Of a stretch of DNA of 64,000 bases, positions 19,492 to 38,176 are shown one piece after another. The position numbers and the translations under genes were made by a program. Positions within the stretch are counted from its first letter, which is position 1; each line of letters starts with the position of its first letter. Below the pieces are notes generated by a model, which saw only the letters and a program-made list of their open reading frames with translations, made no database searches and was not told the DNA's origin. This stretch comes from a virus: positions 11,161 to 75,160 of IMG/VR virus record IMGVR_UViG_3300046337_000201, one strand, 5' to 3'.

Positions 19492-19770
19492 CTATCCAAA
19501 TGATAACATGACCTCAGTTACATCTAATGATGTTGGAGCACTTATGGTTATTCCATCTAAGGGTTGAGAAACAGAAATAGCACTTAAAGTAACACCTTGA
19601 CCTGCTGATAAACCATTAGCTACCGAAGTCAAGCCATTAAAACTAGAAGTACCTAAAAAGCTTAAAGTTCCTGCTTTGCATAAAACAGTTAATCTTACCA
19701 CGTTTTGAGAACTAGATATAGTTAAACTCCCATCAGTAAGAACATAAGTAAATACGTTTGTTGCTCCCAT
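19492..19770 (-). CDS. Small all-beta protein, candidate penton/decoration protein
   Basis: 92 aa of alternating beta strands, upstream of the fibre genes. Confidence 0.45.
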   Translation of the reverse strand: MGATNVFTYVLTDGSLTISSSQNVVRLTVLCKAGTLSFLGTSSFNGLTSVANGLSAGQGVTLSAISVSQPLDGITISAPTSLDVTEVMLSFG

Positions 19771-19776
19771 TTTATA

Positions 19777-20265
19777 TTATTTTAATAAACTTTTTAAGTT
19801 ATTCTCGTATGAAAAAGGAATAGTAGTATATATGAACCCACTATGCACTTTAACATACCCCTCTGCATTTATCCTTAAGTCTTTTAACTTCAAAGTTAAT
19901 GTAACCAAATTTACAATATTTTTCAATATTAATGTAGGATTGAACGAAAATCTATAAGAAACATCAGTAGATTTTGTTGGAAGGATTACTATATCTTGAA
20001 TTTCATTAATATTACCCACTTTGATACCATCTAAGTATATATCTAAATACACCTCAGTTACTACTGCTTCTACATTAGAAGCATTGTATACTCTTTGAGT
20101 AATATCCAATGCAACATCATCTTTTGATATATTGGCTATTTTGATACCAATAATCTTATATTGAATATCCTTCAAAAAGTTAATTTGTTTTTGATAATAA
20201 CGATAAAGAGCAAATCCAATTACTCCTAATCCACTAAATATCAAAATAGGTTTTAATGCTTTCAT
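19777..20265 (-). CDS. Membrane-anchored LEA_2/WHy-domain protein
   Basis: N-terminal TM; VYNASNVEAVVTEVYLDIYLDGIKVG fits the LEA_2 NPN-region pattern. Confidence 0.7.
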   Translation of the reverse strand: MKALKPILIFSGLGVIGFALYRYYQKQINFLKDIQYKIIGIKIANISKDDVALDITQRVYNASNVEAVVTEVYLDIYLDGIKVGNINEIQDIVILPTKSTDVSYRFSFNPTLILKNIVNLVTLTLKLKDLRINAEGYVKVHSGFIYTTIPFSYENNLKSLLK

Positions 20266-20876
20266 TATTTCTTTCTTAATAATACTATTAATAAAATTAC
20301 TCCTAATCCAATACCACCATATAGTAATAAATTCTTATTTGATGTAGTTGAAGTAGATGTATCAACACCTAATAAATCAGATTTAGCATTTTGTATTGAT
20401 TTCTCACTTAAAGTAGTCAAAGTAGCTAATGTTTCAGCTTTTGTTGCTTCTGATTGAGCTTTTGCTTGTATAGCAACACAATCTAATTGAGTTTGTATAC
20501 CTTTAAGTTTACCTTCTATTTCACGAACCACTGCCAATCTAACTGGCAAGAAAGCATCCTTTGGCTTTGCAGCTAATTCTTTTACAATAGATTCTCCTCT
20601 AGTAGACAAGCCATTCAATTTCTTTTGTATGTCATCGCAAGTCTTTTCAGGATATGCAGCCCACGCTTTTCTTTCTGCATCTTGATTTTCTTTCAAATGC
20701 TTTTTACGAAGTTGACTACCAAATAAGTTAGCCCAATCTTCGCCACCACCTTGAAAAAATTCTTGCCCCCCGGTGAAGTTTTTAAACTCTCTACTCTCAT
20801 CAGCAAATTGGTGGTTACCTAATCTACTAGGAGCATGTGCACCTTCGGTTGTTCTTTCAATCATATCTATTGCCAT
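20265..20876 (-). CDS. Tail-anchored membrane protein
   Basis: C-terminal LLLYGGIGLGVILLIVLL-RKK. Confidence 0.65.
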   Translation of the reverse strand: MAIDMIERTTEGAHAPSRLGNHQFADESREFKNFTGGQEFFQGGGEDWANLFGSQLRKKHLKENQDAERKAWAAYPEKTCDDIQKKLNGLSTRGESIVKELAAKPKDAFLPVRLAVVREIEGKLKGIQTQLDCVAIQAKAQSEATKAETLATLTTLSEKSIQNAKSDLLGVDTSTSTTSNKNLLLYGGIGLGVILLIVLLRKK

Positions 20877-20909
20877 AAAATAATTTTTTCTTGTTGTTAA
20901 TAATGCCTT

Positions 20910-21524
20910 TTATTTACTTTTGCTTTTAGCTAAAAAATAGATTAATGCAATAACACCTAATCCTAATGCACCTAGTCCTATGTACTTCATCGTATTATCA
21001 CCTTGAACACCTTGTGGTGGTGGATAATCGCCTTTAGCACCCATTGTAGTGTCATTTGTTACTACATTTGAGCCAACACTAGCTTCTTGACTAGGAGGTG
21101 TATATAATGGAGTTTTTAAAATTCCACTAGGAGTAGGTATTTTTATTCCTAAATCTTGGTTACCATATTTAGGTAATACGCTATAAGGAGTTTTACCTAA
21201 AAGACTATCAGCAGTTGGAGGAGCTATTGCTAATCCACTATCAATTGAACCAACACCTGATTGCATATCTTTTATAGTATTTTGCATTGTGTTAATCCAT
21301 GAAGATAACGCAGTTATATTTCTAGTCTTAATACGCTTACCACCTGAAGTACTTGGTTTTGAGTTTTTTAATGTAGATAGCTCAATAGTAGCTTTCCCTA
21401 TATTTTGTCTTACCTCGTTAATATCTTGACTTAAAGGGTATTTAGATGCGAACTCATTTGCAGCTTCCGCTTTTCGTTGAGCTTCTCCACCTATTAATGT
21501 TTTTCCAAATATTGCAATTGCCAT
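20910..21524 (-). CDS. Tail-anchored membrane protein
   Basis: C-terminal YIGLGALGLGVIALIYFL-AKSKSK. Confidence 0.65.
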   Translation of the reverse strand: MAIAIFGKTLIGGEAQRKAEAANEFASKYPLSQDINEVRQNIGKATIELSTLKNSKPSTSGGKRIKTRNITALSSWINTMQNTIKDMQSGVGSIDSGLAIAPPTADSLLGKTPYSVLPKYGNQDLGIKIPTPSGILKTPLYTPPSQEASVGSNVVTNDTTMGAKGDYPPPQGVQGDNTMKYIGLGALGLGVIALIYFLAKSKSK

Positions 21525-21535
21525 AACCTTTATTT

Positions 21536-22057
21536 TTAGATTTGATATTTAATTCCTTTTGCAGCCCAATCTTTGTTGATACTTGTTACTCTAGCACTAG
21601 TCAATCCACCCCACTCATTACCTAACTCACTTTTTACGAAAGTAAATAAGTCCATAGGATTACCGACAGGGATTCCAAAAGCATAATTTTGTCTATTTCC
21701 AAAAGCTGCTATCAATTTAGCAACATCTAAATTATTTTTCATACTTTTTAAAGTACTTTCCACCGCAGCGTAATCATCCCCAACTGCATATCTCATACCA
21801 TTATAAGCAGTATTAGCAAAAGTTACATAGTTACTATCTAAATACGTTGGCTTGTCACCATTAGATTGAGCAACCTTAATTTCACTACTAATGTTATTTA
21901 CAAGTTCTTGATTCTTTTTAGCTTGGTCAGTAGGAAATACTTTATCGTAAACTCTTTTACCTACTAAAAAAACTATTGCTCCACCACCAACAATAACGAT
22001 ACCTTTCGCCCATGATGGTAAGTCTTTGTAATAATCGTAAAATCCTGCTTTTGCCAT
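21536..22057 (-). CDS. Membrane protein with one annexin-like repeat
   Basis: N-terminal TM; AYNGMRYAVGDDYAAVESTL...LIAAFG...DLFTFVKSELG resembles the annexin repeat consensus. Confidence 0.5.
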   Translation of the reverse strand: MAKAGFYDYYKDLPSWAKGIVIVGGGAIVFLVGKRVYDKVFPTDQAKKNQELVNNISSEIKVAQSNGDKPTYLDSNYVTFANTAYNGMRYAVGDDYAAVESTLKSMKNNLDVAKLIAAFGNRQNYAFGIPVGNPMDLFTFVKSELGNEWGGLTSARVTSINKDWAAKGIKYQI

Positions 22058-22067
22058 AACTTTAATT

Positions 22068-22874
22068 TTAATAGCCTACTGCGTAGACATCTTTTATTTT
22101 ATATTCTTCTATATAATCTCTAATGAACTTATTGATTATATCATATCTTTTTTTATTTTGCTCACTTGGGTAACCTATAAAAGTATCTCCAAACGCAGCA
22201 TAAGCTTCTCTAATTGGATAACCTAATCCTAAGTATATAGTTAATCCATTCAAATCAGCCTCAGTTTCATTCGTTATATCACTATTTAAGTAAAAGTGAC
22301 TAAACTCGTGTAACAATATTGCCATTCTCATTGGAATGGTATAAGGTAAGAAAGACTCTTGAGATACTTGTATTCTACCATTTTTAGTAGAAATACGAGC
22401 AGGAGTAGCCATTTTCTCGCCACTTTTATTATTCTTAATGTATGGTAGGTATTCTATTTTAAAGCTCCCTACACTACTTACATAGTCTTTTGGGGCACTA
22501 ATCCAACCCGCATTGTAACAAAACTTTTGAGCAAATGCTACAAAGTTGCGTACCATTGAATTATCCATCTTTGTTTTACCCAAAGTAATATCTAACTCTT
22601 CTTTCTTAATATCTACTACTTGAAAGCTATTATCTTGCCCCTTTTGTAAATTGCCATTAGCCTTATTGTAAACCGATAAACTTGTTGAATATGGAGAAAG
22701 AGGCATTCTTACGAAAAGTTCTTCTTGTCCATTAATAGTTTTTTCTCTATCGGTGAAATAAGTATTAGCTTGGTTTTTATCGAACACTTTCACTACAATC
22801 ACTTGAGGTGTTTGAGTTTTAATCACGATTTTAACCATGATTGGTTCGTAAAGGGTAAGTAGCTTATAATTCAT
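22068..22874 (-). CDS. Zincin metallopeptidase, candidate virion maturation protease
   Basis: ILLHEFSH followed by NETEAD (HExxH plus third-ligand Glu). Confidence 0.7.
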   Translation of the reverse strand: MNYKLLTLYEPIMVKIVIKTQTPQVIVVKVFDKNQANTYFTDREKTINGQEELFVRMPLSPYSTSLSVYNKANGNLQKGQDNSFQVVDIKKEELDITLGKTKMDNSMVRNFVAFAQKFCYNAGWISAPKDYVSSVGSFKIEYLPYIKNNKSGEKMATPARISTKNGRIQVSQESFLPYTIPMRMAILLHEFSHFYLNSDITNETEADLNGLTIYLGLGYPIREAYAAFGDTFIGYPSEQNKKRYDIINKFIRDYIEEYKIKDVYAVGY

Positions 22875-22875
22875 A

Positions 22876-23157
22876 TTAGATATATAGTGGGGCTTGTATT
22901 CTTTGTGGTTGAATAGCGTATCTTCCTTGTGTTAATTGCTCTTTCTTAGCTTGTTGTTTCTTAGTTACAATGTCAACTGGCATCATAATATTATATTGAG
23001 CTAATAATGGGTTGCTATACTTAGCTGATTCCTCAACTAAAATAGTAGCCGCTGATACCTCACTCGCTTTTACACTATTTTTATTTTTATAATAATAATA
23101 TAAAGTAAGTGCACCCGCACCACCTAAAATCCACCAAATTAAATTATCTTTTTTCAT
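22876..23157 (-). CDS. Small membrane protein, N-terminal TM
   Basis: LIWWILGGAGALTLYYYY-KNK. Confidence 0.65.
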   Translation of the reverse strand: MKKDNLIWWILGGAGALTLYYYYKNKNSVKASEVSAATILVEESAKYSNPLLAQYNIMMPVDIVTKKQQAKKEQLTQGRYAIQPQRIQAPLYI

Positions 23158-23447
23158 TATGCTTTCTTTTTCATTAGTTGACTAATAACGATTGCACCTA
23201 CGATAACACCACCTACTATAAGTAAAGTGCTTGTTGGGAATCCAAATACTGTTTTGCTCATATTACTACTTTTAAGTTGTGACAACTTGTTATTAATATC
23301 TTCATTAAGATTAGCGTTTAATGGAAAAACACCTTTCTTTTTTTCTCTACTAAGCCAATCCGAAAAGTTTAACGTACCCCCTTCATCTTTATATAGTTTG
23401 AAGAGTTGATTTGCAGTTAGCTTTTGTTCCAAATTTACTTCTTCCAT
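23157..23447 (-). CDS. Tail-anchored membrane protein
   Basis: C-terminal LLIVGGVIVGAIVI...KKKA. Confidence 0.65.
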   Translation of the reverse strand: MEEVNLEQKLTANQLFKLYKDEGGTLNFSDWLSREKKKGVFPLNANLNEDINNKLSQLKSSNMSKTVFGFPTSTLLIVGGVIVGAIVISQLMKKKA

Positions 23448-23463
23448 TTTTTGTGGTTATTTT

Positions 23464-23916
23464 TTATTGTGGTATTGAAGGATTTATTGCATTTTTTAAT
23501 GCGTTTAAATCCATTTGAGTATCAATTGATTTTTTATTAATCCAAAATTGTAAAGCTTGTTCAGTCTTTGTACCAAATATACCATCTTCAACCAACTTAA
23601 TTAATTTCTTACCACTAAATTTATCTTGAGGTAACGAATATCCTTTTTGATTAATTAATTTTTGCAATTCAACAACTTTACCTTTTGGCATTAATGGAGC
23701 ACCATTATCCCTATCACCCTTCTTAATTGAATTAGGATTACTAGGTACTACACTCTTTGTAGGTGTAGTTTCTTTTGAGGTGTTAGTGGCATTACTATCT
23801 ATTGCAGCACCTTTACTTGAAGCTTTTTTACCTAATAAACTTTTTATTACGAAGTAAGCTCCAACGATTGCTACTATACTAGCACCAACCATTAATTGTT
23901 TCTTATCTAGCTTCAT
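23464..23916 (-). CDS. Membrane-anchored peptidoglycan-binding domain protein
   Basis: N-terminal TM; IKKGD...VVELQKLI...DGIFGTKTEQAL (PG_binding_1). Confidence 0.75.
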   Translation of the reverse strand: MKLDKKQLMVGASIVAIVGAYFVIKSLLGKKASSKGAAIDSNATNTSKETTPTKSVVPSNPNSIKKGDRDNGAPLMPKGKVVELQKLINQKGYSLPQDKFSGKKLIKLVEDGIFGTKTEQALQFWINKKSIDTQMDLNALKNAINPSIPQ

Positions 23917-24143
23917 TTATCTTCTAATTTAGGTAATAACAATTGAGATACGATACCACCAACCAAAGCTCCTATAAATGCCGAAGAAACTAGATTATAG
24001 CTTCTTGACATACCAATTAAAAGACCACCACCCATTCCTATAAAAGCTCCTGCAATAGTACCCTTAGTCTTTTTTAAAGCCATACTATCACTCTTGGATT
24101 TCAAAAGTTTTACTTTATCTAATATATCTTTTGCCTCTGCCAT
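23913..24143 (-). CDS. Small two-TM glycine-zipper membrane protein
   Basis: GAFIGMGGGLLIG and AFIGALVGGIV. Confidence 0.6.
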   Translation of the reverse strand: MAEAKDILDKVKLLKSKSDSMALKKTKGTIAGAFIGMGGGLLIGMSRSYNLVSSAFIGALVGGIVSQLLLPKLEDK

Positions 24144-24153
24144 TTGTTTAAAT

Positions 24154-24567
24154 TTACGCTATTTTAGGCAAATCTAGTGGTAGTTGTGTACCATTTGATT
24201 TTTGACCTAAATTAACTTTATTACAATTTTTTTGAATAACACCACCCGCTGCATTCATATATCCACTACAATTAACTTCCAACCCAATGTTATTATCATA
24301 AACATTTGGAATAGAGTTTGTAGGCTTGATGTAAATAGGCTTTTTTAAATTGATTAAAGTATCTATTGTACCACTATTAGTGTCATAGATGCGTTCACCA
24401 TTAGCGTTTAGTTCTTTGCCAGTTGCATATTTAACATTATCAGGTGTATCATTACTTGAACCTGATACTAAAACTGTGGGTTTCTTTTGATAATGTTTCC
24501 ATACATAATAGCCAATGATGTATAAAACACCACCACCAATTACATAATTTAAAGTCTTTTTATTCAT
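24154..24567 (-). CDS. Membrane protein, N-terminal TM
   Basis: YVIGGGVLYIIGYYVW-KHYQKK. Confidence 0.6.
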   Translation of the reverse strand: MNKKTLNYVIGGGVLYIIGYYVWKHYQKKPTVLVSGSSNDTPDNVKYATGKELNANGERIYDTNSGTIDTLINLKKPIYIKPTNSIPNVYDNNIGLEVNCSGYMNAAGGVIQKNCNKVNLGQKSNGTQLPLDLPKIA

Positions 24568-24585
24568 AACGATAATTTAAAGATA

Positions 24586-24855
24586 TTATCTTCCATAAGT
24601 TAATTTCTGACCTAATGTGTTTAATCCACTAGGCATATTTGCTGCTTTACCAAAACGAGGTACACCACTTGCATTTACATTAGGTTCGCCACTTGCATTG
24701 AAGTAAGAACCAGTCCAAGATGCTTCACTAGGAGTAGTTGTAGATTTAGCTGCTTTTGCTGCTTTATCTTTTTTCATTTTCATCCAATACCAATAAGCAC
24801 CACCTGCAACTACTGCAAGTACCAATAAATTTTTACCCTTTAACATATTTTTCAT
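24586..24855 (-). CDS. Small membrane protein, N-terminal TM
   Basis: LLVLAVVAGGAYWYW-MKMKK; two NASG motifs. Confidence 0.65.
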   Translation of the reverse strand: MKNMLKGKNLLVLAVVAGGAYWYWMKMKKDKAAKAAKSTTTPSEASWTGSYFNASGEPNVNASGVPRFGKAANMPSGLNTLGQKLTYGR

Positions 24856-24872
24856 TTTAAATTATGATTTAA

Positions 24873-25622
24873 TTATTTCTTATACTTTTTGTATGCCAAA
24901 AATACAATAACACTAACTGCTAATATTCCAACACCTACCCATACATAAGTCATCATATTAGATTGTGGTTGATTAGGTAAGTTTTGTTTCATTTGGTCTT
25001 GAACACCTTGTAATTGTAAAGATTGCTCTTGTAATGCGTTTTGCTTTGCTTGAGTCTTATTAGACATGCTTTGTAAGCCAATTTGAATACCCGCATTTAC
25101 GTTTTCAGATGTCAAAACATTATCTTTTAAGAATCCACCAATACTAGATAACGCTAATCCTACTTTAGTTTTACCTTGAGGATTTGTTGTTGTGTCAACT
25201 CTTGCAGCTTTCTTTTGTGCACTTGTTAATTTAGGAGTTGCTAATTTAGGAGTACTAGTTGTAGTGCTTTTACCTAACCCTAAAAAGCCTTTATCTTTAC
25301 CAATACCTAAAAAACCAAAGTATTCATCCTCTCCTACGAAAGAATAATCATCAATTCCAGTAAACCCAAAATCAACCGCAGTGAAGCTTTTAAAATCTTC
25401 AGTAGCCTTTGGTACTTGTGAGCTTAAATATGTTGTTAAATCGCTTCTAAACGTGCCACTCTTAGCATTAGCCATTAAGACTGCTAAAGTAACTTCATTA
25501 TCTGAAGGATTATTAGGCATTTGAATACCATTTCTTTCAAGTAATCTAATTAAACCATTCTTATCAGTTAAAACTGCGTAAGATAATGCTTCATTTACTA
25601 CTTGTGTTGCGTTTATTGCCAT
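24873..25622 (-). CDS. Tail-anchored membrane protein
   Basis: C-terminal YVWVGVGILAVSVIVFLAY-KKYKK. Confidence 0.65.
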   Translation of the reverse strand: MAINATQVVNEALSYAVLTDKNGLIRLLERNGIQMPNNPSDNEVTLAVLMANAKSGTFRSDLTTYLSSQVPKATEDFKSFTAVDFGFTGIDDYSFVGEDEYFGFLGIGKDKGFLGLGKSTTTSTPKLATPKLTSAQKKAARVDTTTNPQGKTKVGLALSSIGGFLKDNVLTSENVNAGIQIGLQSMSNKTQAKQNALQEQSLQLQGVQDQMKQNLPNQPQSNMMTYVWVGVGILAVSVIVFLAYKKYKK

Positions 25623-25626
25623 TGTA

Positions 25627-26037
25627 TTATTTTTTAATCATGATTGCAAAAGCTATTAACACTGTTCCAAATATCACTGCCATTGTTGTTTGGTTTGTTA
25701 ATTGCTTGTTTTCTGCGGTTTGTTGTGCCGCTTGTAATTGTCCTGAAAAATTCATGTAATTTTCAAGAATCTTTGTGTGCTCTCTTTCACTATCCTTTTC
25801 CACTAATTTCGAATCAAATTTCTTTTTAAAATAATCCATAAATAAATCCTTATCAGGATTATTCTCAATTATTTCCATCATTGCGGGTTCCCCCTCGTAG
25901 CTAACCAATTGTTGTAGTACGCTTGATAAAGGTTGGTCTTTATCAAATTCATACCCATACTTATGTGCAAGTGACCTTACAAAATAAGGATTTGCTTGTG
26001 CGGTGTATGTGAATATATTTACTCTAGGTAATGACAT
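25627..26037 (-). CDS. Tail-anchored membrane protein
   Basis: C-terminal AVIFGTVLIAFAIMI-KK. Confidence 0.65.
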   Translation of the reverse strand: MSLPRVNIFTYTAQANPYFVRSLAHKYGYEFDKDQPLSSVLQQLVSYEGEPAMMEIIENNPDKDLFMDYFKKKFDSKLVEKDSEREHTKILENYMNFSGQLQAAQQTAENKQLTNQTTMAVIFGTVLIAFAIMIKK

Positions 26038-26062
26038 AGTACGAATTTACTAAATTTTAATT

Positions 26063-26110
26063 AAAAAAAGGGTATAAGTATAAGATATTAAATCCCAACT
26101 TACACCCCTT
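26063..26110 (-). terminator. Putative intrinsic terminator after the capsid gene
   Basis: Imperfect inverted repeat AAGGGTATAAGT/ACTTACACCCCTT followed by a T-run on the minus strand. Confidence 0.55.
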
Positions 26111-26143
26111 TCTTATTTTTTTTATCTACTTTCTAAACTAGAA

Positions 26144-26839
26144 TTATCTAGTTGCAGGTCTGATAATCTTTGGACTACCATATTGCTTAGAAACTGGATT
26201 TCCACCCAATCCACGAGCAATGTTGATTGTATCAGAAGGGTAGAATTGGAACTGAACTGTTGTTGCAGCATAAAGTTGGAAAGTCAACTTTGTGAAACCA
26301 TCGATTCTGAATGGTTGCTTCAATTCAATTACACCGCTTTGTTGTTGATACGGGTCAATTGTTGGTGTCAAGATTTTAGTAGCTTGGTTACCATTCGCAT
26401 CTAATGTGCTTAATGTTAATGGAGCTAAAACTTGAGACGTTGTACCTGCTACTGAAGAAATCAAAGTACTACCAATTGTGAATGGAGATACACTTGATTG
26501 ATTCAATAAGTTGTAGTAAGTTACGTTTGATAAACCTGAACTAATTGTTACGTTAGATACAGTTAAAGAACCACCACTGAAACCAGTGTTGTTCAAATAA
26601 ATGTAAGCACCGAATACATCGATAGTTACTGCTGCGTTAGACGCATTAGAAACTGTTACGATATAAGGTTGAGAACGTAAAACTGGAGCTGCTGCCATTG
26701 GAGCTGCTTCGCCATCTGCACTGAAGAAATTTTCTCCACCTGCAAAATACATGTCATCATCTACGAATCCATCTACACCGATGAATTGCTCATTTACTTG
26801 GCGATTAGCCATTTGTAAATACTTTTGAATACTACTCAT
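26144..26839 (-). CDS. Candidate major capsid protein, single jelly-roll type
   Basis: About 8 amphipathic beta strands, C-ending codons (TTC, ATC, TAC, AAC) suggesting high expression, own promoter and terminator, near the packaging ATPase, has a paralog next to the spike. Confidence 0.65.
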   Translation of the reverse strand: MSSIQKYLQMANRQVNEQFIGVDGFVDDDMYFAGGENFFSADGEAAPMAAAPVLRSQPYIVTVSNASNAAVTIDVFGAYIYLNNTGFSGGSLTVSNVTISSGLSNVTYYNLLNQSSVSPFTIGSTLISSVAGTTSQVLAPLTLSTLDANGNQATKILTPTIDPYQQQSGVIELKQPFRIDGFTKLTFQLYAATTVQFQFYPSDTINIARGLGGNPVSKQYGSPKIIRPATR

Positions 26840-26894
26840 TTTTAATGAATTTTAATTTTTAATTGAATTTGTTTTAAATTCAGTTACTTCTTGA

Positions 26895-27002
26895 TTACGC
26901 ACCGATTTTAGCCTTGTCTAATAGTGGCTTTGCAACCAACATATATAGAGCAACACCTCCTGCAACGATAAGTAATTGTCCTGCGATTTTTTTGAAATCC
27001 AT
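26895..27002 (-). CDS. 35-aa membrane protein upstream of the capsid gene (not in ORF track)
   Basis: MDFKKIAGQLLIVAGGVALYMLVAKPLLDKAKIGA. Confidence 0.7.
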   Translation of the reverse strand: MDFKKIAGQLLIVAGGVALYMLVAKPLLDKAKIGA

Positions 27003-27066
27003 TTTGTAAGATTTTAGATTTTTAAATTGGGTCAACTATTAAATACAGATTCAATGATTGACACTC

Positions 27067-27074
27067 CAAATTTA
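27067..27074 (-). promoter_or_regulatory. Bacteroidota-type -7 element TAAATTTG of the capsid operon
   Basis: TAnnTTTG followed by a leader hairpin (GTCAA...TTGAC, 27031..27062). Confidence 0.6.
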
Positions 27075-27225
27075 TGTAATTATAAGGCATTAATATATTT
27101 TAATTACTTACTTTATTGTAACTTTTTTTTTCTATTGTTTCGTATGGTTACAATTTGTATATAAAACAAATAACCCCTAAAATCTTTCGATAATAAGGGC
27201 TATTATAGGTTAGTAAAATGTGTAA

Positions 27226-28050
27226 TTATGAGAAATAAGAGTGAATCATCCTTTCTTTTATCTCTTTTATAGCACTTTCTTCAGTGTGTTTTTTCTTATT
27301 TCCTTCTTTTTGAACAAGATATGGTTTCAATATCTGCTTGTAATTTTCATTGATATATTGATTCAAAGCTTCCTCCCTTACATCATCAGGTATATTACCT
27401 CTAATCTTAGATTCATCCATATCTACATATAAGAAGTATCTAATATTACCCCTACCATATTCATTGTTTACCATTATTTCAGCGATACGCATAAACTCAA
27501 ACTTATCAGGGAATTTTTGAGCATGTCTTTCCACACTCTCATTATTCTTATGAAATCTTAATTGATTTAGATTACCCCATATCTTAGTATTAATACGACC
27601 TAATGATTGATAAGATAAAATAATATCCAATCCAATATGTCTATTGGTACAAATAGCACCAATTAAATCACCAGGCATGTGGTCATAGATAAACTTATTA
27701 ATATCCTCAATTAGTAATAATCCATTCTGAAATCTATTGAGTACATAGAATAATGCTTGAGCCCATTCATCTAGGGTCATTCTAGCTCCATTTGGATGAA
27801 ATGGTCTAACTCTACGAATTTGTACGCTTGGATGAACAGTGAATAGGGGTACATCCTTTAATGATATTGCTTGAACTCCATAAGTACCCGCACCATATTC
27901 ATCATTCACATCCATTATTAAGCACTTCCTTCCTTTAATACCTTGATAGTAGTCACCTTGAACGTATTGGTTCATCATTATCATATGTTGATATGACTTA
28001 CCAACTCCTTTTTTACCACAAGCTGCCATTAACATTGGTTCTCTACCCAT
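27226..28050 (-). CDS. Genome packaging ATPase, FtsK/HerA superfamily (A32/PRD1-P9-like)
   Basis: Walker A GKKGVGKS near the N-terminus, IMDVNDEY, Walker B LLIED, Arg finger NRH, sensor SYQ; 274 aa with no nuclease domain. Confidence 0.8.
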   Translation of the reverse strand: MGREPMLMAACGKKGVGKSYQHMIMMNQYVQGDYYQGIKGRKCLIMDVNDEYGAGTYGVQAISLKDVPLFTVHPSVQIRRVRPFHPNGARMTLDEWAQALFYVLNRFQNGLLLIEDINKFIYDHMPGDLIGAICTNRHIGLDIILSYQSLGRINTKIWGNLNQLRFHKNNESVERHAQKFPDKFEFMRIAEIMVNNEYGRGNIRYFLYVDMDESKIRGNIPDDVREEALNQYINENYKQILKPYLVQKEGNKKKHTEESAIKEIKERMIHSYFS

Positions 28051-28055
28051 AATAC

Positions 28056-28340
28056 TTATTTTCTATCTTTTAAAGTTATTTCGAATCTAGCCGAGTCTTT
28101 ATATTTAGAAAAAGACAATGTTCTAATTTTTGTTACGCAAAAAGTAAAATCATACTCTACTTTTAAAAAATCCTCCTTCTTAGTAAATATTGGATTTACG
28201 ATACAATCTTCCACTAACATTTTAAAATCCTCTTCATCTTCTATTGGATAATCAAAATGTATACTTTCCTCTTCAAATGTTTTTACAAATGATATGATTG
28301 TTTTTTTAAAATTAATCCATTCTTGGTTTTTGATTCTCAT
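28056..28340 (-). CDS. Hypothetical protein
   Basis: Tightly packed ORF. Confidence 0.5.
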   Translation of the reverse strand: MRIKNQEWINFKKTIISFVKTFEEESIHFDYPIEDEEDFKMLVEDCIVNPIFTKKEDFLKVEYDFTFCVTKIRTLSFSKYKDSARFEITLKDRK

Positions 28341-28341
28341 A

Positions 28342-29490
28342 TTAATCTAAATCCGCATAGGGGTCTTTTTCCTTCTTTGGTTGGTTAATAGTTTCATTCA
28401 AAATAATAGCTTCTGCAATTTCTTCTTCATCTAATGGAATAGAATCAGACTTTGCTTTTCTACCTCTTTTGCCATTATTAGTTCTATTCTTCATTGCTAG
28501 TTCGTAAGCACTTGGTGTTCCTTCTGCATCCTTCTTCCACTTTTTCTCTTTAGCCAATTGTTGAATAACTCGTGCCTTACCAGTGCTTGGAACTTGCATT
28601 TGTTGAACACTACTATTCATTACACTCTCATTTGTTTGAAAGTTGAAGTCAGCAGCATTAGTATTTATCGTTTGGTCATGATATACTTGTTGAGTAGGAG
28701 AAGGTGTTGTCGTTGGTTGTGTTGGATTTGGTTGAGTACTTGTTGGTCTACTCATTCCACTCTCTTTAAACGCTAATGTATGGTCTTTTATAATATTAAT
28801 CATATCATTCATAGTACCACGCATTTGAGCTATAATAACCCCTTTAACTGCAAGGTCTTTACCAAAAGCAAAAAGTAGATATTGCTCATCAGTCATACCC
28901 GCACCTCTTTTTTGCAATACTCTAATTAATGGAGGTTTTACATCTTTCTTAAACTCTTTACTTACGCTTAGAGTATCTTTATTTTGTTCATTAAATTCTT
29001 GAATAAACTCACCCGCAGTTATTGTCTTTCCATATTCATATGGTATTTCAATACCTAAATCTATCTCTCCTTCACTTTGTAACTTCCTAAGTTTTCTTTC
29101 AGGAAATTGTAATAGTTGATTACCAAAAACGTGTAATTGCTCATAGCCATCTAAAATCAGATTAGCCATGTGTTCAGCACCCATTTTCTTTTCAGCATCA
29201 GACAAGTCGTTCATCATAGGGTTTATTGGAGGAGGAGTGCTTTTAGCACCACCGCCACCACCACTAGGAGCCGCATCACCACCTAGCATATCGTAGGGAT
29301 TCTCGCCAGTGTCTATGGAGTGAGGTTGAAATGTTGGTTCAGGAATAGCATTTGTCATTTGTTCTTGACTAACACCTACCGATAAATTGGTATATGGTTT
29401 CTCGTTTACATTCTCAAAAAATGGATTGTAAGTTCTAGTAGGTTGACTAATAGGAGCTTCTTGCGTGGTTATTTTTTGTTCTTCACTCAT
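28342..29490 (-). CDS. Hypothetical protein, helical core with disordered ends (possible packaging accessory)
   Basis: 382 aa, upstream of the ATPase; role inferred from position only. Confidence 0.5.
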   Translation of the reverse strand: MSEEQKITTQEAPISQPTRTYNPFFENVNEKPYTNLSVGVSQEQMTNAIPEPTFQPHSIDTGENPYDMLGGDAAPSGGGGGAKSTPPPINPMMNDLSDAEKKMGAEHMANLILDGYEQLHVFGNQLLQFPERKLRKLQSEGEIDLGIEIPYEYGKTITAGEFIQEFNEQNKDTLSVSKEFKKDVKPPLIRVLQKRGAGMTDEQYLLFAFGKDLAVKGVIIAQMRGTMNDMINIIKDHTLAFKESGMSRPTSTQPNPTQPTTTPSPTQQVYHDQTINTNAADFNFQTNESVMNSSVQQMQVPSTGKARVIQQLAKEKKWKKDAEGTPSAYELAMKNRTNNGKRGRKAKSDSIPLDEEEIAEAIILNETINQPKKEKDPYADLD

Positions 29491-30348: not shown

Positions 30349-31036
30349 TTTTTTCCTTTTTTTTCTTTAATGCTTCTTTTGTACATTTTGAAATTTTATC
30401 TTTATGTTCTTGTGTCATAATAGCCAAAACACTTTGCCTAACTTTTTCTTTTGATTCTTCTGACATTTTTTTCCCCTTATTCCATGCAATGCAACCTTTT
30501 CTTAAATTAGAAATCTTATTTTTAACTTCTTGTGACCTTTTTTTACCTAAATTAGATTTTGAAATTTTATCTTTGTGCTCTTGTGTAATATGTTTTCTTG
30601 GATTATTATTTAAAGACATTTTTTCTTTTATATGTATTGAATGCTTTTTACCATAATATGGATTTTTTTCACCACTTACCATATTTGAATATTTTTCCTT
30701 TCTTTCTTGAGTCCATGCATTTTTAATACTTATATTTCGTTTTATTTTTATATCTTCTGATAAATTTAATGTGCCTTCTCCTCCATCTGTTAAATTACAT
30801 AAATTAATCTTACTATTTTCTTTCCAAAATGATATAAGATATTTTTCAATTGAACAAGCCTCTTCCCAAATAATATTATTGTGAGTTATTTCAACTACAT
30901 AATCATATTTATTGACAACATTATGCCAATGATTATTTCTATTAATTTTTTTATATGCTCTTGTTTGATTTTTACCAATGCCAATATAAAAAATTTCATT
31001 ATTATCTTTTCTTCTATGTAGATAGACTATTGCCAT
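30332..31036 (-). CDS. GIY-YIG-like homing endonuclease with NUMOD3 repeats
   Basis: VYLHRR...FYIGIG...RA...E...NLTDGGEG; HSxExKxKIS repeats. Confidence 0.85.
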   Translation of the reverse strand: MAIVYLHRRKDNNEIFYIGIGKNQTRAYKKINRNNHWHNVVNKYDYVVEITHNNIIWEEACSIEKYLISFWKENSKINLCNLTDGGEGTLNLSEDIKIKRNISIKNAWTQERKEKYSNMVSGEKNPYYGKKHSIHIKEKMSLNNNPRKHITQEHKDKISKSNLGKKRSQEVKNKISNLRKGCIAWNKGKKMSEESKEKVRQSVLAIMTQEHKDKISKCTKEALKKKKEKNAINT

Positions 31037-31683
31037 TATAGTTTGTATTTCTCTTTAAATTCTTTGTCTTTTGTAATTAGCTCGTATATGTACATAGAAT
31101 AATCATTATCTGATTCATAGTGTACTCCTAAAAAGAGTCTACTATACTCAATGTCTTTGGCTAATTTTTCAAAATAATCAAATTTTTCAGGGAAATGGTT
31201 ACCCAAAACGTAGCAAATTAAATGTGCTTGTAGGGTATGACCACTTGGGTAAGAAGGGCTATCACTAGATTTGGTAGCGTATGGGAATAGCTTCAGCTTA
31301 TAAGCATGAGCTAATTGATATGGTCTAGGTCTTTGAAAAAAGAACTTTAACTTAATAAGTAATGGTAATGTATCATCTAGTAGTCTATCTACTATTTCAA
31401 TACCTTTTTCTCCTAACTCTTGTTCTACGATAACATCCGCAAATGTTTTAGTTAGTGATTTATCGTATGATTTATACCTTTTTAGAATTTCAGGATTATT
31501 CTTCATCACTTCGATATTGTCCACTAAAGCATTTAATTCCTCTCTAGTAGACTTTGAAGTGTTCTTAGGAAAACTAAATTTTATAAGTTGAGGTACATGC
31601 TTTTCAAGAAAACTAGTACCTTCTTGTTCTAAATAAGGCAAATGCTTTTGGAGTGGATTACCCCAAGTAATTGAATCTATCAT
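31036..31683 (-). CDS. PAP2-superfamily phosphatase/haloperoxidase-like protein
   Basis: KFFFQRPRP, YPSGH, SRLFLGVHYESD. Confidence 0.85.
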   Translation of the reverse strand: MIDSITWGNPLQKHLPYLEQEGTSFLEKHVPQLIKFSFPKNTSKSTREELNALVDNIEVMKNNPEILKRYKSYDKSLTKTFADVIVEQELGEKGIEIVDRLLDDTLPLLIKLKFFFQRPRPYQLAHAYKLKLFPYATKSSDSPSYPSGHTLQAHLICYVLGNHFPEKFDYFEKLAKDIEYSRLFLGVHYESDNDYSMYIYELITKDKEFKEKYKL

Positions 31684-35106: not shown

Positions 35107-35634
35107 TTATGCGTTATATTCTATACATTTAACTCGATTCATCCAACCTTTAATAAACTTCTTTTGAGAAGGGTTTGCAGCTACTATTCTATTGTATCTA
35201 TCGGTTCTCATTTGTTTCAATGTATTGAATAACATTTTAGAATCACAAGAGTTAATAGCTTGAAGGGTTTTACTACCAATGATTGCATCAGGTGTAACCT
35301 TTAAAATACTTTGAACATATTTTGCAATTAGGTATTTACCTTGATTAATTGCTCCATCCACAATGTATTCAGCTAATGATTGATTTTTTATATTGTCAGC
35401 TTTGAAAAAGTCCCAATAAAGCTTTTTATAGACCATTTTAGCATCTTCTAATGTTAATGCTAATACATCGTCACAAGTGTATTTGCCATCATGGTTCTTG
35501 TCCAAATGGAACTCTATTAATGTCTCCAAAATAATTCCAAAATGAGTACAGCCGCCTAAATCAGTGGGGTCATTCTCGTACTTTGTACCTTCAGAAGATA
35601 ATATCTTAGGAAAGAAAATATCAAAATTAGCCAT
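35107..35634 (-). CDS. Endolysin, glycoside hydrolase family 108 with PG_binding_3
   Basis: EGTKYENDPTDLGGCTHFGI; QKKFIKGWMNRV. Confidence 0.88.
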   Translation of the reverse strand: MANFDIFFPKILSSEGTKYENDPTDLGGCTHFGIILETLIEFHLDKNHDGKYTCDDVLALTLEDAKMVYKKLYWDFFKADNIKNQSLAEYIVDGAINQGKYLIAKYVQSILKVTPDAIIGSKTLQAINSCDSKMLFNTLKQMRTDRYNRIVAANPSQKKFIKGWMNRVKCIEYNA

Positions 35635-35635
35635 G

Positions 35636-35851
35636 TTATAAGCTATTTGATTTTATTGGTTCATCATCAGAGAATAAATTCGATAAAAATTTACCTACGA
35701 ATGCAGAACTTAGAGTAACGTATGCTACTACTTTGTAATCTTGTGCAAATCCAATAGTAGATGCAGCTAATGCAGCTACACTTAGACTATCAGCGAACTT
35801 TCTTACCTTTTTAGGTGTAGGTTTCCAATATTCACTTATTCCAAATTTCAT
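35636..35851 (-). CDS. Putative holin
   Basis: Two TMs, YWKPTPKK, immediately upstream of the endolysin. Confidence 0.6.
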   Translation of the reverse strand: MKFGISEYWKPTPKKVRKFADSLSVAALAASTIGFAQDYKVVAYVTLSSAFVGKFLSNLFSDDEPIKSNSL

Positions 35852-35893
35852 AGTATAAATTTTTATTAATGCTTTAATAAATTAATGCTTTAA

Positions 35894-35901
35894 CAAATTT
35901 A
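35894..35901 (-). promoter_or_regulatory. Bacteroidota-type -7 element TAAATTTG upstream of the lysis genes
   Basis: TAnnTTTG in the intergenic gap. Confidence 0.5.
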
Positions 35902-35935
35902 TGCTAAAAAACCAAACAAATAAAAAAAACGTAAT

Positions 35936-36109
35936 TTATCTTACATAACCAACTATATCATCAATCTTATTAGTGATAGTTATTATATCATTATCTTGAT
36001 TAGTAAAATGTAGATAAAGTATATAAAATTGGAACGAAATTGAAATAACCACCCATGTTACTGCAAATACTAATATTACTTGCAAAAGGTTGTTTATAAA
36101 GTTTTTCAT
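35936..36109 (-). CDS. Small membrane protein (start re-called at MKNFINN)
   Basis: One TM; the shorter start avoids overlap with the upstream gene. Confidence 0.5.
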   Translation of the reverse strand: MKNFINNLLQVILVFAVTWVVISISFQFYILYLHFTNQDNDIITITNKIDDIVGYVR

Positions 36110-36134
36110 GGTTTTTGTTTTTTTAATGGTTAAT

Positions 36135-36416
36135 CTACCAAAGTAGTTTATCAGCAAACCAACCATTACTATTTCTAATATGTCTATCCGATTCGTGTCT
36201 TTGCTTATATAATTTTCTTCTATTGTCAGCATATTCTTTGCCATGCGTAACCTTGAATGTAGGATAATCCCCATATCCAATGGCTCCTATACTAGCTAAT
36301 TTTTCTCCTTTCTTATTAAACACATCAATCTTTTTGCCTTTAACTTGAGAAGGTTTAACAATGACTCCTAATTTAGAAGCTTGTTCTTTAGTGTATGGTA
36401 GAATATGATAAGCCAT
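36135..36416 (-). CDS. Tlr6F/DUF5754-like protein (start re-called at MAYHILPY)
   Basis: KKIDV...GAIGYGDY...RRKLYKQRH...WFADKLLW matches the recalled family signature. Confidence 0.7.
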   Translation of the reverse strand: MAYHILPYTKEQASKLGVIVKPSQVKGKKIDVFNKKGEKLASIGAIGYGDYPTFKVTHGKEYADNRRKLYKQRHESDRHIRNSNGWFADKLLW

Positions 36417-36418
36417 AA

Positions 36419-36952
36419 TTATTTTTTTCTTAAAACAACTGCTCCTAATGTCAAAGCTCCAACTATACCTGCAAAAATTAACCAACTATAATCAGTTTTC
36501 TCCTCTTCTTTTGGTGTAGCAATTGGCTCTACTTTTGGTGTAGGAGTTGGAGTAGGTGCAGGAGTTGGTTCTACTATTGGTGCAGGAGTAGGAATAGGTG
36601 CAGGAGTAGGACTAGGAATAGGTGCAGGTTGACCTTGAGCTTTTGCTAATTTTGCTCTTTCACGACCCTCAGCCATTTTTCTTAATTTTTCATCGTATGA
36701 TGCCTTGTTAAGATTGTATTTTTCAATTTTCTCAACTAATAGCTCGTCAAAATCATTTAAAGCATCTTCTGCTTCATTAATATCGTTTTCAATTTCATCT
36801 ACATCTTCAGCTTCAGCGGTTTCTAACGACTCTCTAAGTTGATTTACTTCATTAATACCTTTGTAATATTCACTAACCTCAGCGTTTAAGGACTTAGATA
36901 ATTTACCAATTTCTAATCCTAATTCTTGTGCTTTTTGTTCAAACTTTGTCAT
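36419..36952 (-). CDS. Tail-anchored coiled-coil protein with Pro-rich linker
   Basis: Acidic coiled coil, PTPAP repeats, C-terminal TM plus RKK. Confidence 0.65.
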   Translation of the reverse strand: MTKFEQKAQELGLEIGKLSKSLNAEVSEYYKGINEVNQLRESLETAEAEDVDEIENDINEAEDALNDFDELLVEKIEKYNLNKASYDEKLRKMAEGRERAKLAKAQGQPAPIPSPTPAPIPTPAPIVEPTPAPTPTPTPKVEPIATPKEEEKTDYSWLIFAGIVGALTLGAVVLRKK

Positions 36953-36982
36953 TTTGTTGGTTTTTTTGTATGTATAAAATTA

Positions 36983-37126
36983 CTATATTTTTTCTAATTT
37001 TTTCAAAGCATCTTCATAAGATACTGGAGTTTCATCAATTTTTTTATTTCTTTGATTTCTATAAAATAGCCAACCACCTAGTCCTATTACTAATATTGAG
37101 GTTATTATACCTAATTTCTTATTCAT
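36983..37126 (-). CDS. 47-aa membrane protein (not in ORF track)
   Basis: MNKKLGIITSILVIGLGGWLFYRNQRNKK... Confidence 0.65.
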   Translation of the reverse strand: MNKKLGIITSILVIGLGGWLFYRNQRNKKIDETPVSYEDALKKLEKI

Positions 37127-37136
37127 ATTAATTGAT

Positions 37137-37631
37137 TTAATTGATTCTACCTAATTGTGCAATGTCCCTAACTGCTTCAATAATCCCTTTCATACTATTT
37201 AAGTACACAATAGGATTAGTAGTAGTGTATTTAGCTTTTGCTATCATAATTATTTGTTCTTCAGGAGTTTTAGCATTGTTTCTAGCATCTTTGTATCTAT
37301 CCCCTAAAAGTACATCTATGTGAGCTTTAAAGCCTGATTGCACATCTTTGAACTTAGCAAATTTAGCTTTTGTTTTTACTTTCTTACCTTTTACGAACTC
37401 AGTAGTATCTTGTAATACATACCCAACAACTCCTGGCAATGATGGATTGTATTTTATACCCGCAAAGTTATTGCTTCCTTCAGGGATGTATTTACCATAT
37501 CCACTTTCTAAAGCAGATTGAGCCATAACCGCAGGGAAGAATAAATTAGTTCCTTTTATGGCACTAGCTACTCCAATACCATATAGTTGGATAAATTTCT
37601 TTGTTGCGTTATATGTTGCTATTCCATACAT
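37137..37631 (-). CDS. GH73 glucosaminidase/muramidase (FlgJ-like)
   Basis: AQSALESGYG, NNFAGIK, TTEF, YTT..Y. Confidence 0.88.
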   Translation of the reverse strand: MYGIATYNATKKFIQLYGIGVASAIKGTNLFFPAVMAQSALESGYGKYIPEGSNNFAGIKYNPSLPGVVGYVLQDTTEFVKGKKVKTKAKFAKFKDVQSGFKAHIDVLLGDRYKDARNNAKTPEEQIIMIAKAKYTTTNPIVYLNSMKGIIEAVRDIAQLGRIN

Positions 37632-37633
37632 AA

Positions 37634-38176
37634 TTATTTATTTTTATTTTTTAAGTAGTAATACCCACCAATTCCTATCAAAATTAAACCAATTCCCAAC
37701 GTTGTTATGTTATTTTTTATAAACTCAATTACGTTGATTTTTAAAAGTTTTGCTTTTAGTCCATTAGCGTAATTAGTAATATCACTTGTTGCTTGACTAG
37801 TACCATAAGGAGTTGAGCCATAGTACCCTCTTTTCTTTAACTTATTGGCAAAATCATTGACATCAGTAGAGTCTTTTAATTGTTTAGGTGTAACACCTCC
37901 CATAGTAATATTATAGAGTCTTACTATTTTGTCATTAATAGAATCTTGTATTGTATTGAATTTTGCGTAATAGTTACCTTCAGGGGAAAGCGTACCTTGA
38001 ACTGCATTAGGTTGACCAATAAACTTTATACCACTTGTATTGTTATTGTTTTTAAATACGTTTGAGGTATAGTCAGCACTCTCAAAACGAGCTTGTGCCA
38101 CTATTAGTTTAGCCGCTTTTGGGTTGAATCCTTGTGAGATTGCGGTATCATATATCATTTGGTCAATACTTGCCAT
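37634..38176 (-). CDS. GH73-like peptidoglycan hydrolase with C-terminal membrane anchor
   Basis: AQARFES, NNTSGIK, LKKRGYY; C-terminal TM plus Lys-rich tail. Confidence 0.8.
   Translation of the reverse strand: MASIDQMIYDTAISQGFNPKAAKLIVAQARFESADYTSNVFKNNNNTSGIKFIGQPNAVQGTLSPEGNYYAKFNTIQDSINDKIVRLYNITMGGVTPKQLKDSTDVNDFANKLKKRGYYGSTPYGTSQATSDITNYANGLKAKLLKINVIEFIKNNITTLGIGLILIGIGGYYYLKNKNK

Follow-up and report, generated by a model that had tools for sequence, protein, structure and literature searches.

Candidate morphogenesis core of a large, probably tailless virus lineage of Bacteroidota with a B204-type packaging ATPase and a jelly-roll protein

This analysis concerns a 64-kb stretch of viral DNA (the window), which corresponds to bases 11161-75160 of a 75,160-bp IMG/VR virus record of the linear class, and centres on the interval 19492-29490, in which a packaging ATPase of 274 amino acids (aa) is encoded beside a 231-aa jelly-roll protein and a long run of small membrane proteins. 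We consider it likely that this interval constitutes the morphogenesis core of a lineage of double-stranded DNA (dsDNA) viruses of Bacteroidota (Flavobacteriales), with genomes of ~75-102 kb and tailless icosahedral particles that have an internal membrane and a jelly-roll shell. This view is built on the class of the ATPase, the fold type of the 231-aa protein, the gene order, the density of membrane proteins, the lack of detectable tailed-phage genes, the link to Flavobacteriales and the genome size. All genes of the window lie head to tail on the minus strand at a G+C content of ~31%, and the interval holds 19 called genes and a 35-aa miniORF (Table 1). The open reading frames (ORFs) listed by a preceding sequence-only reading are all present on that strand. 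Four records were compared: the window's own (G000, 75 kb), two relatives of 84 kb (G001 and G002, the latter rated 90% complete) and one of 102 kb (G010, rated 100% complete). With 75 kb for the window's record and 84-102 kb for its relatives, the genome of 64 kb or more that had been proposed earlier is borne out.

Packaging ATPase, jelly-roll protein and membrane-protein block

The 274-aa protein is a P-loop ATPase that forms one compact domain without a nuclease part. Its Walker A motif reads GKKGVGKS (residues 12-19) and its Walker B motif LLLIED (110-116), and past Walker B follow T135-N-R137-H138, Q148 and G151-R152. In an alignment with 35 relatives of 51-91% identity both Walker motifs, T135, R137-H138, Q148 and G151-R152 are invariant, in agreement with the Walker A/Walker B/RH/Q layout and the missing nuclease domain that the sequence-only reading had described. 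Homologues in metagenomes number 548. No relevant Pfam model exceeded the cut-off with the window ATPase itself; among the 35 relatives, DUF87, which is the central domain of HerA, is matched by 21 (best E 9e-8) and Zot by 11, and Pox_A32 is not among the Pfam families listed for them.

The AlphaFold model built from the alignment (predicted local distance difference test, pLDDT, 88.7) places the protein with the archaeal packaging NTPase B204 of Sulfolobus turreted icosahedral virus (STIV) and STIV2. In Foldseek, ranks 1-15 are all B204 of these two viruses (E 8.5e-10), followed by Zot (1.5e-6) and HerA (3.3e-6). In VIA-align, the model superposes on STIV2 B204 along the entire length of the latter, with a Z of 18.0 and a root-mean-square deviation of 2.6 Å for 187 of 204 residues. 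Other families score lower (DndH-C Z 15.9, HerA 15.8, VirB4 ~14, FtsK 11.7), and B204 is the only match of the same compact size.

Profile comparisons point in the same direction. Among the ORFs of five reference viruses the ATPase family profile picks out the STIV ATPase (E 2e-4), and among PDB sequences it reaches HerA at E 0.012, where phmmer with the single sequence gave chance matches only. In hhalign, the best of four reference ATPases is that of P23-77 (E 7e-5, 147 columns), followed by those of STIV and PM2 (P9), both at E 1e-3. With these three the alignment spans Walker A through the NRHxG...SxQ motif, and TNRHxGLDIxLSYQS of the window ATPase is aligned with ANRHAGIGLILSTQR in STIV, GGRENGHNVVFVTQM in P23-77 and KGRKYGVQLYVATQS in PM2. 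With PRD1 P9, in contrast, Walker A alone aligns and the downstream Arg...Gln motif does not. The A32/P9 type assigned earlier therefore stands, both by the structural placement with B204 and by the post-Walker-B motif common to B204, PM2 P9 and the P23-77 ATPase, and in every respect that could be tested the protein is a packaging ATPase of the A32/P9/B204 type. A census of P-loops (GxxxxGK[ST]) found three real P-loop proteins in the genome, namely an APS kinase, the 274-aa ATPase and a MoxR-like AAA protein, and only the first two of these in G002, so that no conserved candidate for a DNA-packaging motor is left other than the 274-aa ATPase.

The 231-aa protein encoded next to it has 1047 homologues at E <= 0.001, of which the best 120 are 78-95% identical. 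The lineage is diverse, as relatives of this coat-type protein are spread over 528 clusters in a library grouped at 50% identity; a tblastn search with both proteins against 50,697 cultured phage records gave no match. A model from 79 diverse sequences (pLDDT 84, residues 53-211 above 94) consists of an N-terminal helix, a disordered acidic arm and a beta-sandwich of eight to nine strands. The best Foldseek matches, at E ~1e-3, are the small subunit of cowpea mosaic virus, satellite tobacco mosaic virus (STMV) and picornavirus VP3, among which TNF and concanavalin-type lectins are interspersed. An exhaustive VIA-align search is headed by the coat protein of grapevine fanleaf virus (Z 6.5), the PR772 penton protein P31 (6.1) and a capsid chain of Paramecium bursaria chlorella virus 1 (5.4), with the Faustovirus major capsid protein, the phiCjT23 capsid, STMV, the PM2 P1 base and PRD1 P31 among the further matches. 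Against the viral models of BFVD, generic jelly-roll, C1q and collagen-head matches only were obtained (E ~1e-4 to 1e-3). Since the Z values are middling for this tool, we describe the protein as a jelly-roll-type sandwich of a family without a close solved relative. The capsid-like jelly roll predicted for it earlier is thus recovered, with viral proteins as best matches and modest scores.

The family profile matched none of the proteins of the icosahedral Salisaeta phage SSIP-1, PRD1, PM2 and STIV and neither capsid protein of P23-77. In hhalign, P23-77 VP16 and VP17 reached probabilities of 0.1% and 0.5%, a match whose weakness is compatible with a common fold, and the two are not listed among the fold matches of the model. 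Judged by sequence comparison, the capsid candidate appears to belong to no known capsid family.

The 231-aa gene also stands out in its expression signals. Its share of C-ending codons among two-fold NNY codons (0.51) is the highest of 101 genes, with 0.39 for the next gene and a median of 0.22; this measure was used in place of the effective number of codons, which is uninformative as an expression proxy in this AT-rich genome. Of the promoter and terminator of its own that had been ascribed to the gene, the terminator is well founded, with U7 placed after a -26 kcal/mol hairpin (z -6.3). For the promoter, there is a plausible TAAATTTG box upstream of the miniORF and the jelly-roll gene, which fits the Bacteroidota -7 consensus TAnnTTTG; as this motif is not enriched across the window (98 observed, 107 expected), the box is a candidate only, and a sigma-70 scan stayed at chance level. 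Taken together, codon bias, the strong terminator and the upstream box point to what is probably a very highly expressed structural protein.

A shorter, 176-aa paralogue is encoded 21 kb away from the ATPase-adjacent gene. It matches positions 103-200 of the family hidden Markov model (HMM), and its gene overlaps the start of a gene for a 1295-aa Ser/Thr-rich spike (1308-5195). One paralogue of this type is found in each of G000, G001 and G002, at the same place in the latter two. Taken as a penton beside a spike, it would complete a coherent model of shell plus vertex. Further copies occur in other genomes: the distant relative L029 has two adjacent jelly-roll copies, and up to six matches to the family are found per genome. 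This maximum is reached in G010. Here the canonical gene with a single copy again lies by the ATPase; the genome also encodes three further paralogues, of which one contains a stop codon, and an intact 397-aa protein that consists of two complete tandem jelly-roll copies (L057 10001-11194; G010:C1:17381-18406). Three such tandem forms are present among the representative clusters (P0255, P0381, P0388). If the jelly-roll lineage is a separate one, the tandem double copy in the 102-kb relative would be a second, independent duplication from single to double.

The arrangement of the genes adds to this picture. A 382-aa gene and a 94-aa gene precede the ATPase, and the ATPase is followed by a 35-aa transmembrane (TM) miniprotein, the jelly-roll gene, eight single-TM proteins, an HExxH protein and five small proteins. 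In PRD1 the P9 ATPase is followed by gpi, P20 (DNA packaging), the P3 capsid, P22 and further small proteins; in PM2, P9 is followed by P7, the P2 capsid and the small structural proteins P3, P4 and P8; in P23-77 two small ORFs come between the ATPase and the two capsid genes. The succession of ATPase, tiny TM protein, capsid and small membrane proteins mirrors that of PRD1 and PM2. The miniORF, which is unannotated, lies in an apparent gap of 386 nt and had been missed by the sequence-only reading, takes the position of PRD1 P20 and PM2 P7, and proviruses have a 64-73-aa TM protein at this point. The gene order is kept from the window virus to proviruses whose ATPases are 32-39% identical.

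A strict hydropathy scan of the interval found a TM helix in 9 of the 19 called genes. Reading the sequences adds three TM proteins (93, 137 and 89 aa) and the miniORF, which brings the count to ~13 of 20 genes with one TM helix and substantiates the long run of single-TM genes reported around the jelly-roll gene. TM genes are concentrated in the region from 19.4 to 38.2 kb (14 of 36 genes, against 3 of 36 beyond 38.2 kb). The eight genes next to the jelly-roll gene are mostly core genes in G001 and G002, and similar tail-anchored runs come after the jelly-roll gene in proviruses.

Host link and competing readings

Infection of Bacteroidota, as proposed before, agrees with the translation-start signals and with proviruses in Flavobacteriales chromosomes. 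A Shine-Dalgarno-like motif precedes 5 of 119 genes, below the background of 10%, and the sequence upstream of the genes is rich in A, with maxima at -11 to -13 and at -3. Few Shine-Dalgarno motifs combined with A-rich upstream regions are the pattern described for Bacteroidota. Among 185,579 species, each represented by one genome, a scan yielded 17 loci that encode relatives of the ATPase. Those on contigs longer than 200 kb are all labelled Bacteroidota with one exception, and the Bacteroidota loci include a Crocinitomicaceae metagenome-assembled genome, two Parvicellaceae chromosomes, the isolate Fluviicola chungangensis MAH-3 and Raineya. The exception (L026; CP034120.1, a complete genome) is labelled Glaciecola amylolytica THG-3.7; this label looks wrong, because the genome groups in Fluviicola's order and the locus is syntenic with that of Fluviicola chungangensis, host flanks included. 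In the chromosomal loci, the ATPase and jelly-roll genes are separated by 0.4-37 kb; in Fluviicola chungangensis MAH-3 they are situated at ~138.0 kb and ~129.9-130.5 kb, respectively, of contig NZ_VLPL01000008. In the Parvicellaceae element one arm encodes a polyvalent-type protein, a TM protein, a 160-aa protein, the 382-aa homologue and the ATPase, and the other the TM miniprotein, the jelly-roll gene, a tail-anchored run, the HExxH protein, a lysin, a patatin-like phospholipase and a tyrosine integrase. Moreover, 10 of 301 sampled genomes of Fluviicola's order contain the jelly-roll gene, several of them at megabase positions on large contigs. The peptidoglycan hydrolases of the virus were likewise counted towards a bacterial (Bacteroidota) host. 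These genomic data support Bacteroidota as the probable host phylum, with a link to Flavobacteriales.

Several points weigh against the reading favoured here. No virion has been seen, so that the shape of the particle, its membrane and the absence of a tail are deduced from genes alone. As the record has a CheckV completeness of 67% and one public contig overruns its end by 92 nt, some genes may be unseen. HerA-like ATPases of cellular or defence systems lie only ~2 Z units under B204. For the 231-aa protein, carbohydrate-binding modules (CBMs), nucleoplasmin and Ena pilus subunits are interleaved among the capsid matches of VIA-align, and Z values of no more than 6.5 may reflect a common beta-sandwich, with lectins, CBMs, nucleoplasmin, TNF/C1q and Ena scoring alike. 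Since the penton proteins PRD1 P31 and PM2 P1 are among the best matches, the protein could also sit at the vertex and not in the shell. Finally, very diverged terminase, portal or HK97 genes can be missed by profile searches; a non-core 367-aa protein (45729-46832) matches PHROG tail-fibre families at E 1e-6, and a 177-aa protein (36419-36952) shows a sub-threshold match of 59 residues to Phi29_MCP (E 9e-4).

The question of vertex or shell leads to a reading in which the virus is again tailless and membrane-containing and the 231-aa protein serves as a penton, cementing or receptor-binding protein, the shell being formed by another, unrecognised gene product. The good matches to PRD1 and PR772 P31, the PM2 P1 base and TNF/C1q-like trimeric heads would suit this role, and the several jelly-roll paralogues per genome show that the fold serves more than one role. 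However, no other core protein looks shell-like, the model of the 382-aa protein being poor and without a jelly-roll neighbour, and it is the 231-aa gene that is best conserved, most codon-biased and in the capsid-gene position beside the ATPase. The shorter paralogue beside the spike suits the penton role better. We therefore regard this division of roles as unlikely, and the 231-aa protein as the probable major capsid protein.

An affiliation with tailed phages (Caudoviricetes), in which the ATPase and the jelly-roll protein would be accessory and the terminase, portal and HK97 capsid too diverged for profiles, was judged mainly on the search for hallmark genes. About 70 proteins of the record were scanned against Pfam, 20 of them also against PHROGs, and no terminase, portal or HK97 capsid family was found, nor among ten of the largest proteins unique to two relatives. 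Six-frame profile searches of G000, G001, G002 and G010 with Terminase_6N (for which a 68-kb relative took the place of G010), TerL_ATPase, Terminase_6C, Phage_portal and Phage_capsid, thus with one model each for portal and HK97 capsid, remained without a match at E <= 1, whereas matches were obtained in control genomes. At the level of profile matches, the statement of the sequence-only reading that the structural block has no terminase, portal, HK97 or tail gene can accordingly be extended from the block to the whole 75-kb record and three relatives, and the P-loop census leaves no spare protein that could act as large terminase. What speaks for a tailed phage is the automatic label Uroviricota on the Atlas clusters of two neighbouring proteins that were searched, the tail-fibre and Phi29_MCP matches given above and the fibre-like beta-roll proteins. 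Yet the proteins with tail-like matches are non-core or too short, and tailless viruses carry fibres and spikes too, as the spike proteins annotated in the PRD1 and PM2 records illustrate. Given in addition the strong positive evidence for a B204-type motor and a gene order like that of PRD1 and PM2, a tailed phage is very improbable. As to double jelly-roll capsid viruses, no hallmark of Bamfordvirae/Tectiliviricetes was recognised among the scanned proteins, two of which were modelled.

Least credible is a non-icosahedral entity, either a mobile element with HerA/VirB4-driven DNA transfer across membranes or a pleomorphic vesicle virus with the jelly-roll protein as fibre or surface layer: it would be in keeping with the HerA, DndH and VirB4 ATPases at Z 14-16, the Ena pilus subunits among the jelly-roll matches, the many membrane proteins and polyvalent domains typical of conjugative elements and phages (DUF2958, ART-PolyVal, DUF5661, LPD1, LPD29), but neither a relaxase nor a coupling protein nor any further part of a secretion system was seen among the scanned proteins, the genome encodes spikes, fibres and three peptidoglycan hydrolases, B204 ranks first among the matches and is the sole one of the same compact size, and the gene order is that of PRD1 and PM2.

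For the favoured tailless, membrane-containing particle the following assembly scheme can be proposed. The 231-aa single jelly-roll protein would be made in the largest amount and form the shell, and the 176-aa paralogue, encoded beside the spike and fibre genes, would form the vertices. The small single-pass membrane proteins whose genes follow directly on the shell gene, at least twelve in number, would populate a host-derived inner membrane, which the PAP2 lipid phosphatase may help to shape. The 274-aa ATPase would dock at one vertex, probably via the 35-aa miniprotein and its 94-aa and 382-aa neighbours, and pump the genome into the preformed particle, while the cell-wall hydrolases would serve entry and lysis.

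Further features of the record

The features of the interval and of its surroundings are collected in Table 1. In the 382-aa protein the N-terminal third is of low complexity and the C-terminus is basic; it has no Pfam or PHROG match, and its Atlas model is poor (pLDDT 0.53) with no informative neighbours. The HExxH protein is conserved in distant loci and proviruses, with no Pfam family above the cut-off. In the eight-gene run, the 150-aa protein shows a weak peptidoglycan-binding motif (PG_binding_1, E 0.002, below the cut-off). Among the five small core genes, TM helices are N-terminal in the 173-aa protein and C-terminal in the 204-aa and 203-aa proteins; the 162-aa protein has an LEA_2-type beta-sandwich behind an N-terminal TM helix, and the 92-aa protein is beta-rich without a TM helix.

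Table 1. Position and assignment of features in the window
Feature	Position	Strand	Basis
176-aa paralogue of the 231-aa protein, candidate vertex (penton) protein	5185..5715	-	BLASTP E 5e-6; family HMM E 1.5e-13
Five core genes (173, 204, 203, 162 and 92 aa)	19492..22057	-	Translations, hydropathy, Pfam, conservation
268-aa HExxH protein (zincin-like), core gene; possibly maturation/entry metallopeptidase	22068..22874	-	HEFSH in translation
Eight consecutive genes (136, 249, 89, 137, 76, 150, 96 and 93 aa), candidate virion-membrane proteins	22876..26037	-	One terminal TM helix each
Intrinsic terminator after jelly-roll gene	~26063-26107	-	Hairpin -26 kcal/mol, z -6.3, then U7
231-aa single jelly-roll protein, candidate major capsid protein	26144..26839	-	Model, fold searches, homologues, codon use
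35-aa single-TM miniprotein between ATPase and jelly-roll gene	26895..27002	-	Read from sequence
TAAATTTG box, candidate promoter of the unit of miniORF and capsid gene	27067-27074	-	Fits Bacteroidota -7 consensus TAnnTTTG
274-aa genome-packaging ATPase, B204/P9/A32 type (FtsK/HerA superfamily)	27226..28050	-	Motifs, model, fold search
94-aa core protein between 382-aa gene and ATPase	28056..28340	-	Conserved in G001, G002; no Pfam match
382-aa conserved protein, possibly packaging/assembly accessory	28342..29490	-	Directly upstream of ATPase; homologue by ATPase in nearly all distant loci/proviruses
215-aa PAP2-type lipid phosphatase, core gene	31036..31683	-	Pfam PAP2 E 1.7e-9
GH108 + PG_binding_3 lysin	35107-35634	-	Pfam
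Two glucosaminidases	37137-37631, 37634-38176	-	Pfam

The PAP2 phosphatase is conserved in the distant relatives L016-L018 and in G001 and G002. Enzymes that act on lipids accompany the module elsewhere too, as the patatin-like phospholipase of the Parvicellaceae element lies by the integrase (L045 17308-18420, chromosome 1). The cell-wall hydrolases at 35107..38176 are recognised by Pfam at E 6e-16, 3.5e-15 and 1.4e-10; the GH108 lysin and one of the two glucosaminidases are core genes, and the lysin is kept in proviruses as well. Of the 53 core proteins, those of at least 250 aa include the spike, a RecT recombinase, two glycosyltransferases, the zincin-like protein, polyvalent-type proteins and several of unassigned function.

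Other parts of the window vary between relatives. Four beta-roll fibre genes (12914-19049, minus strand; 421, 514, 451 and 628 aa) all match a single ORF of 2813 aa in G002 (G002:C1:26815-35256), and G001 has collagen-repeat fibres instead, so that the fibre region is the most changeable part of the genome. Three homing-endonuclease-like genes (30332-31036, 33261-33995 and 39803-40351, minus strand), two with NUMOD3 repeats and one HNH type with NUMOD4, are located within the structural block and occur in only some close relatives. Polyvalent-protein domains (DUF2958, ART-PolyVal, DUF5661) are found at 38180-50230 (minus strand), and relatives and proviruses have LPD1, LPD29, DUF6908 and DUF3560 at the equivalent place. 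Proteins with polyvalent domains are often delivered together with DNA.

Upstream of the window, an early block (G000:C1:1-7852, plus strand) runs towards the structural genes and includes the RecT recombinase (6929-7852); in G002 this block is inverted relative to G000. No DNA polymerase was found in the four records with the DNA_pol_B_2 and DNA_pol_B profiles, and a lead from Atlas (score 0.88) that likened a 245-aa early protein to protein-primed B-family polymerases was rejected because of this result. The same protein has a weak match to Adeno_Penton_B (E 0.002, below the cut-off).

G000 is collinear with G001 over the full length, and the ends of the two agree within ~2 kb. Neither contains direct or inverted terminal repeats; in G002, the start matches a site ~800 bp before the end over 114 bp in inverted orientation. 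The public contigs that cover the window are fragmentary and gave neither transcript ends nor a firm genome end. The last ~800 bases (window ~63160-64000) have no ORF of at least 60 aa, the plus strand is strikingly G-poor there, and the depth of public contigs drops. At 62438-62605, within a 111-aa ORF, contig depth is raised several-fold in four runs, and many contigs continue into sequence that is not part of the window, as if this piece were repeated or common to other genomes. The public runs that hold the window are labelled freshwater metagenome; six runs from six studies contain at least one quarter of its words, three of which are possibly the source sample, and no RNA runs are listed among them.

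Comparison with known viruses

Cultured tailless membrane-containing viruses of bacteria are few and small, those compared here ranging from ~10 kb to 43.8 kb. With this lineage, bacterial viruses of such an architecture would reach 75-102 kb and gain a new family of capsid proteins. It bears on the origin of jelly-roll virus lineages as well as on the identity of many non-tailed aquatic particles. Since a related provirus resides in the isolate Fluviicola chungangensis MAH-3, the morphology, lipids and packaging of the particles are directly testable. We put forward only tentatively that a new high-rank group of dsDNA viruses is involved, which would combine a jelly-roll shell unrelated to the capsids of Bamfordvirae and Helvetiavirae with a B204-type motor, an inner membrane and genomes of 75-102 kb. 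If this is true, membrane-lined capsids of jelly-roll proteins can accommodate large genomes in bacteria as well as in the giant viruses of eukaryotes, and the lineage might be part of the unexplained non-tailed particles in lakes and seas. A full-text search of the literature found no paper describing the lineage, and it is not covered by the 2018 census of prokaryotic double jelly-roll viruses, for which double jelly-roll capsid proteins served as queries.

For the ATPase, the closest counterpart is B204 of STIV and STIV2 (Turriviridae), with the same compact single-domain fold, the same Walker A and Walker B and the same NRHxG...LSxQ motif. The identity is 16-19%, and the window ATPase has ~55 extra helical residues at its C-terminus. 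STIV is an archaeal virus of 17.7 kb with a double jelly-roll capsid, in contrast to the bacterial 75-kb virus with its single jelly-roll candidate.

PRD1 (Tectiviridae) and PM2 (Corticoviridae) share with the window virus not only the order from the ATPase to the membrane proteins, but also a lysin, a spike and a separate vertex protein. On the level of the motor PM2 is the nearer of the two, its P9 aligning from Walker A to the R...Q motif. Their genomes are much smaller (14.9 kb and 10.1 kb, respectively, against 75-102 kb), their capsid proteins are double jelly rolls without profile similarity to the 231-aa protein, and no protein-primed polymerase was found in the four records with the polymerase profiles named above.

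The Thermus phage P23-77 (Helvetiavirae) combines single jelly-roll capsid proteins with an internal membrane, as proposed for the window virus, and likewise has its ATPase gene a short way upstream of the capsid genes. The single jelly-roll Helvetiavirae have now been placed in a realm of their own, Singelaviria (PMC12714852). In the 17-kb genome of P23-77 the genes for VP16 and VP17 are adjacent, and a side-by-side pair of single jelly-roll capsid genes after the ATPase is a trait of Helvetiavirae; in the window, one jelly-roll gene lies by the ATPase and the paralogue far off. Because there is no profile match to VP16 or VP17, membership in Helvetiavirae/Singelaviria is not supported at the sequence level.

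By size, and by host phylum, the nearest cultured analogue is SSIP-1, whose host genus Salisaeta belongs to the Bacteroidetes. SSIP-1 is a tailless, membrane-containing icosahedral phage of PRD1-type architecture with two types of capsid protein (PMC6356626). There is no sequence relation: neither the ATPase nor the jelly-roll profile matches any of its ORFs, and the tblastn search of the phage collection gave no match. Its genome has 43,788 bp, and the genomes described here are 1.7-2.3 times larger; its habitat is hypersaline, whereas the runs that hold the window are of freshwater origin by their labels.

With regard to the shell, a similar arrangement is that of Sulfolobus polyhedral virus 1 (Portogloboviridae), an archaeal virus of ~20 kb that is not known to encode a packaging ATPase. 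Its capsid encloses a lipid layer and consists of hexamers of one single jelly-roll protein, while another protein of this fold occupies the pentons. In the lineage described here, the combination of a main jelly-roll gene and a shorter paralogue would suggest such an architecture.

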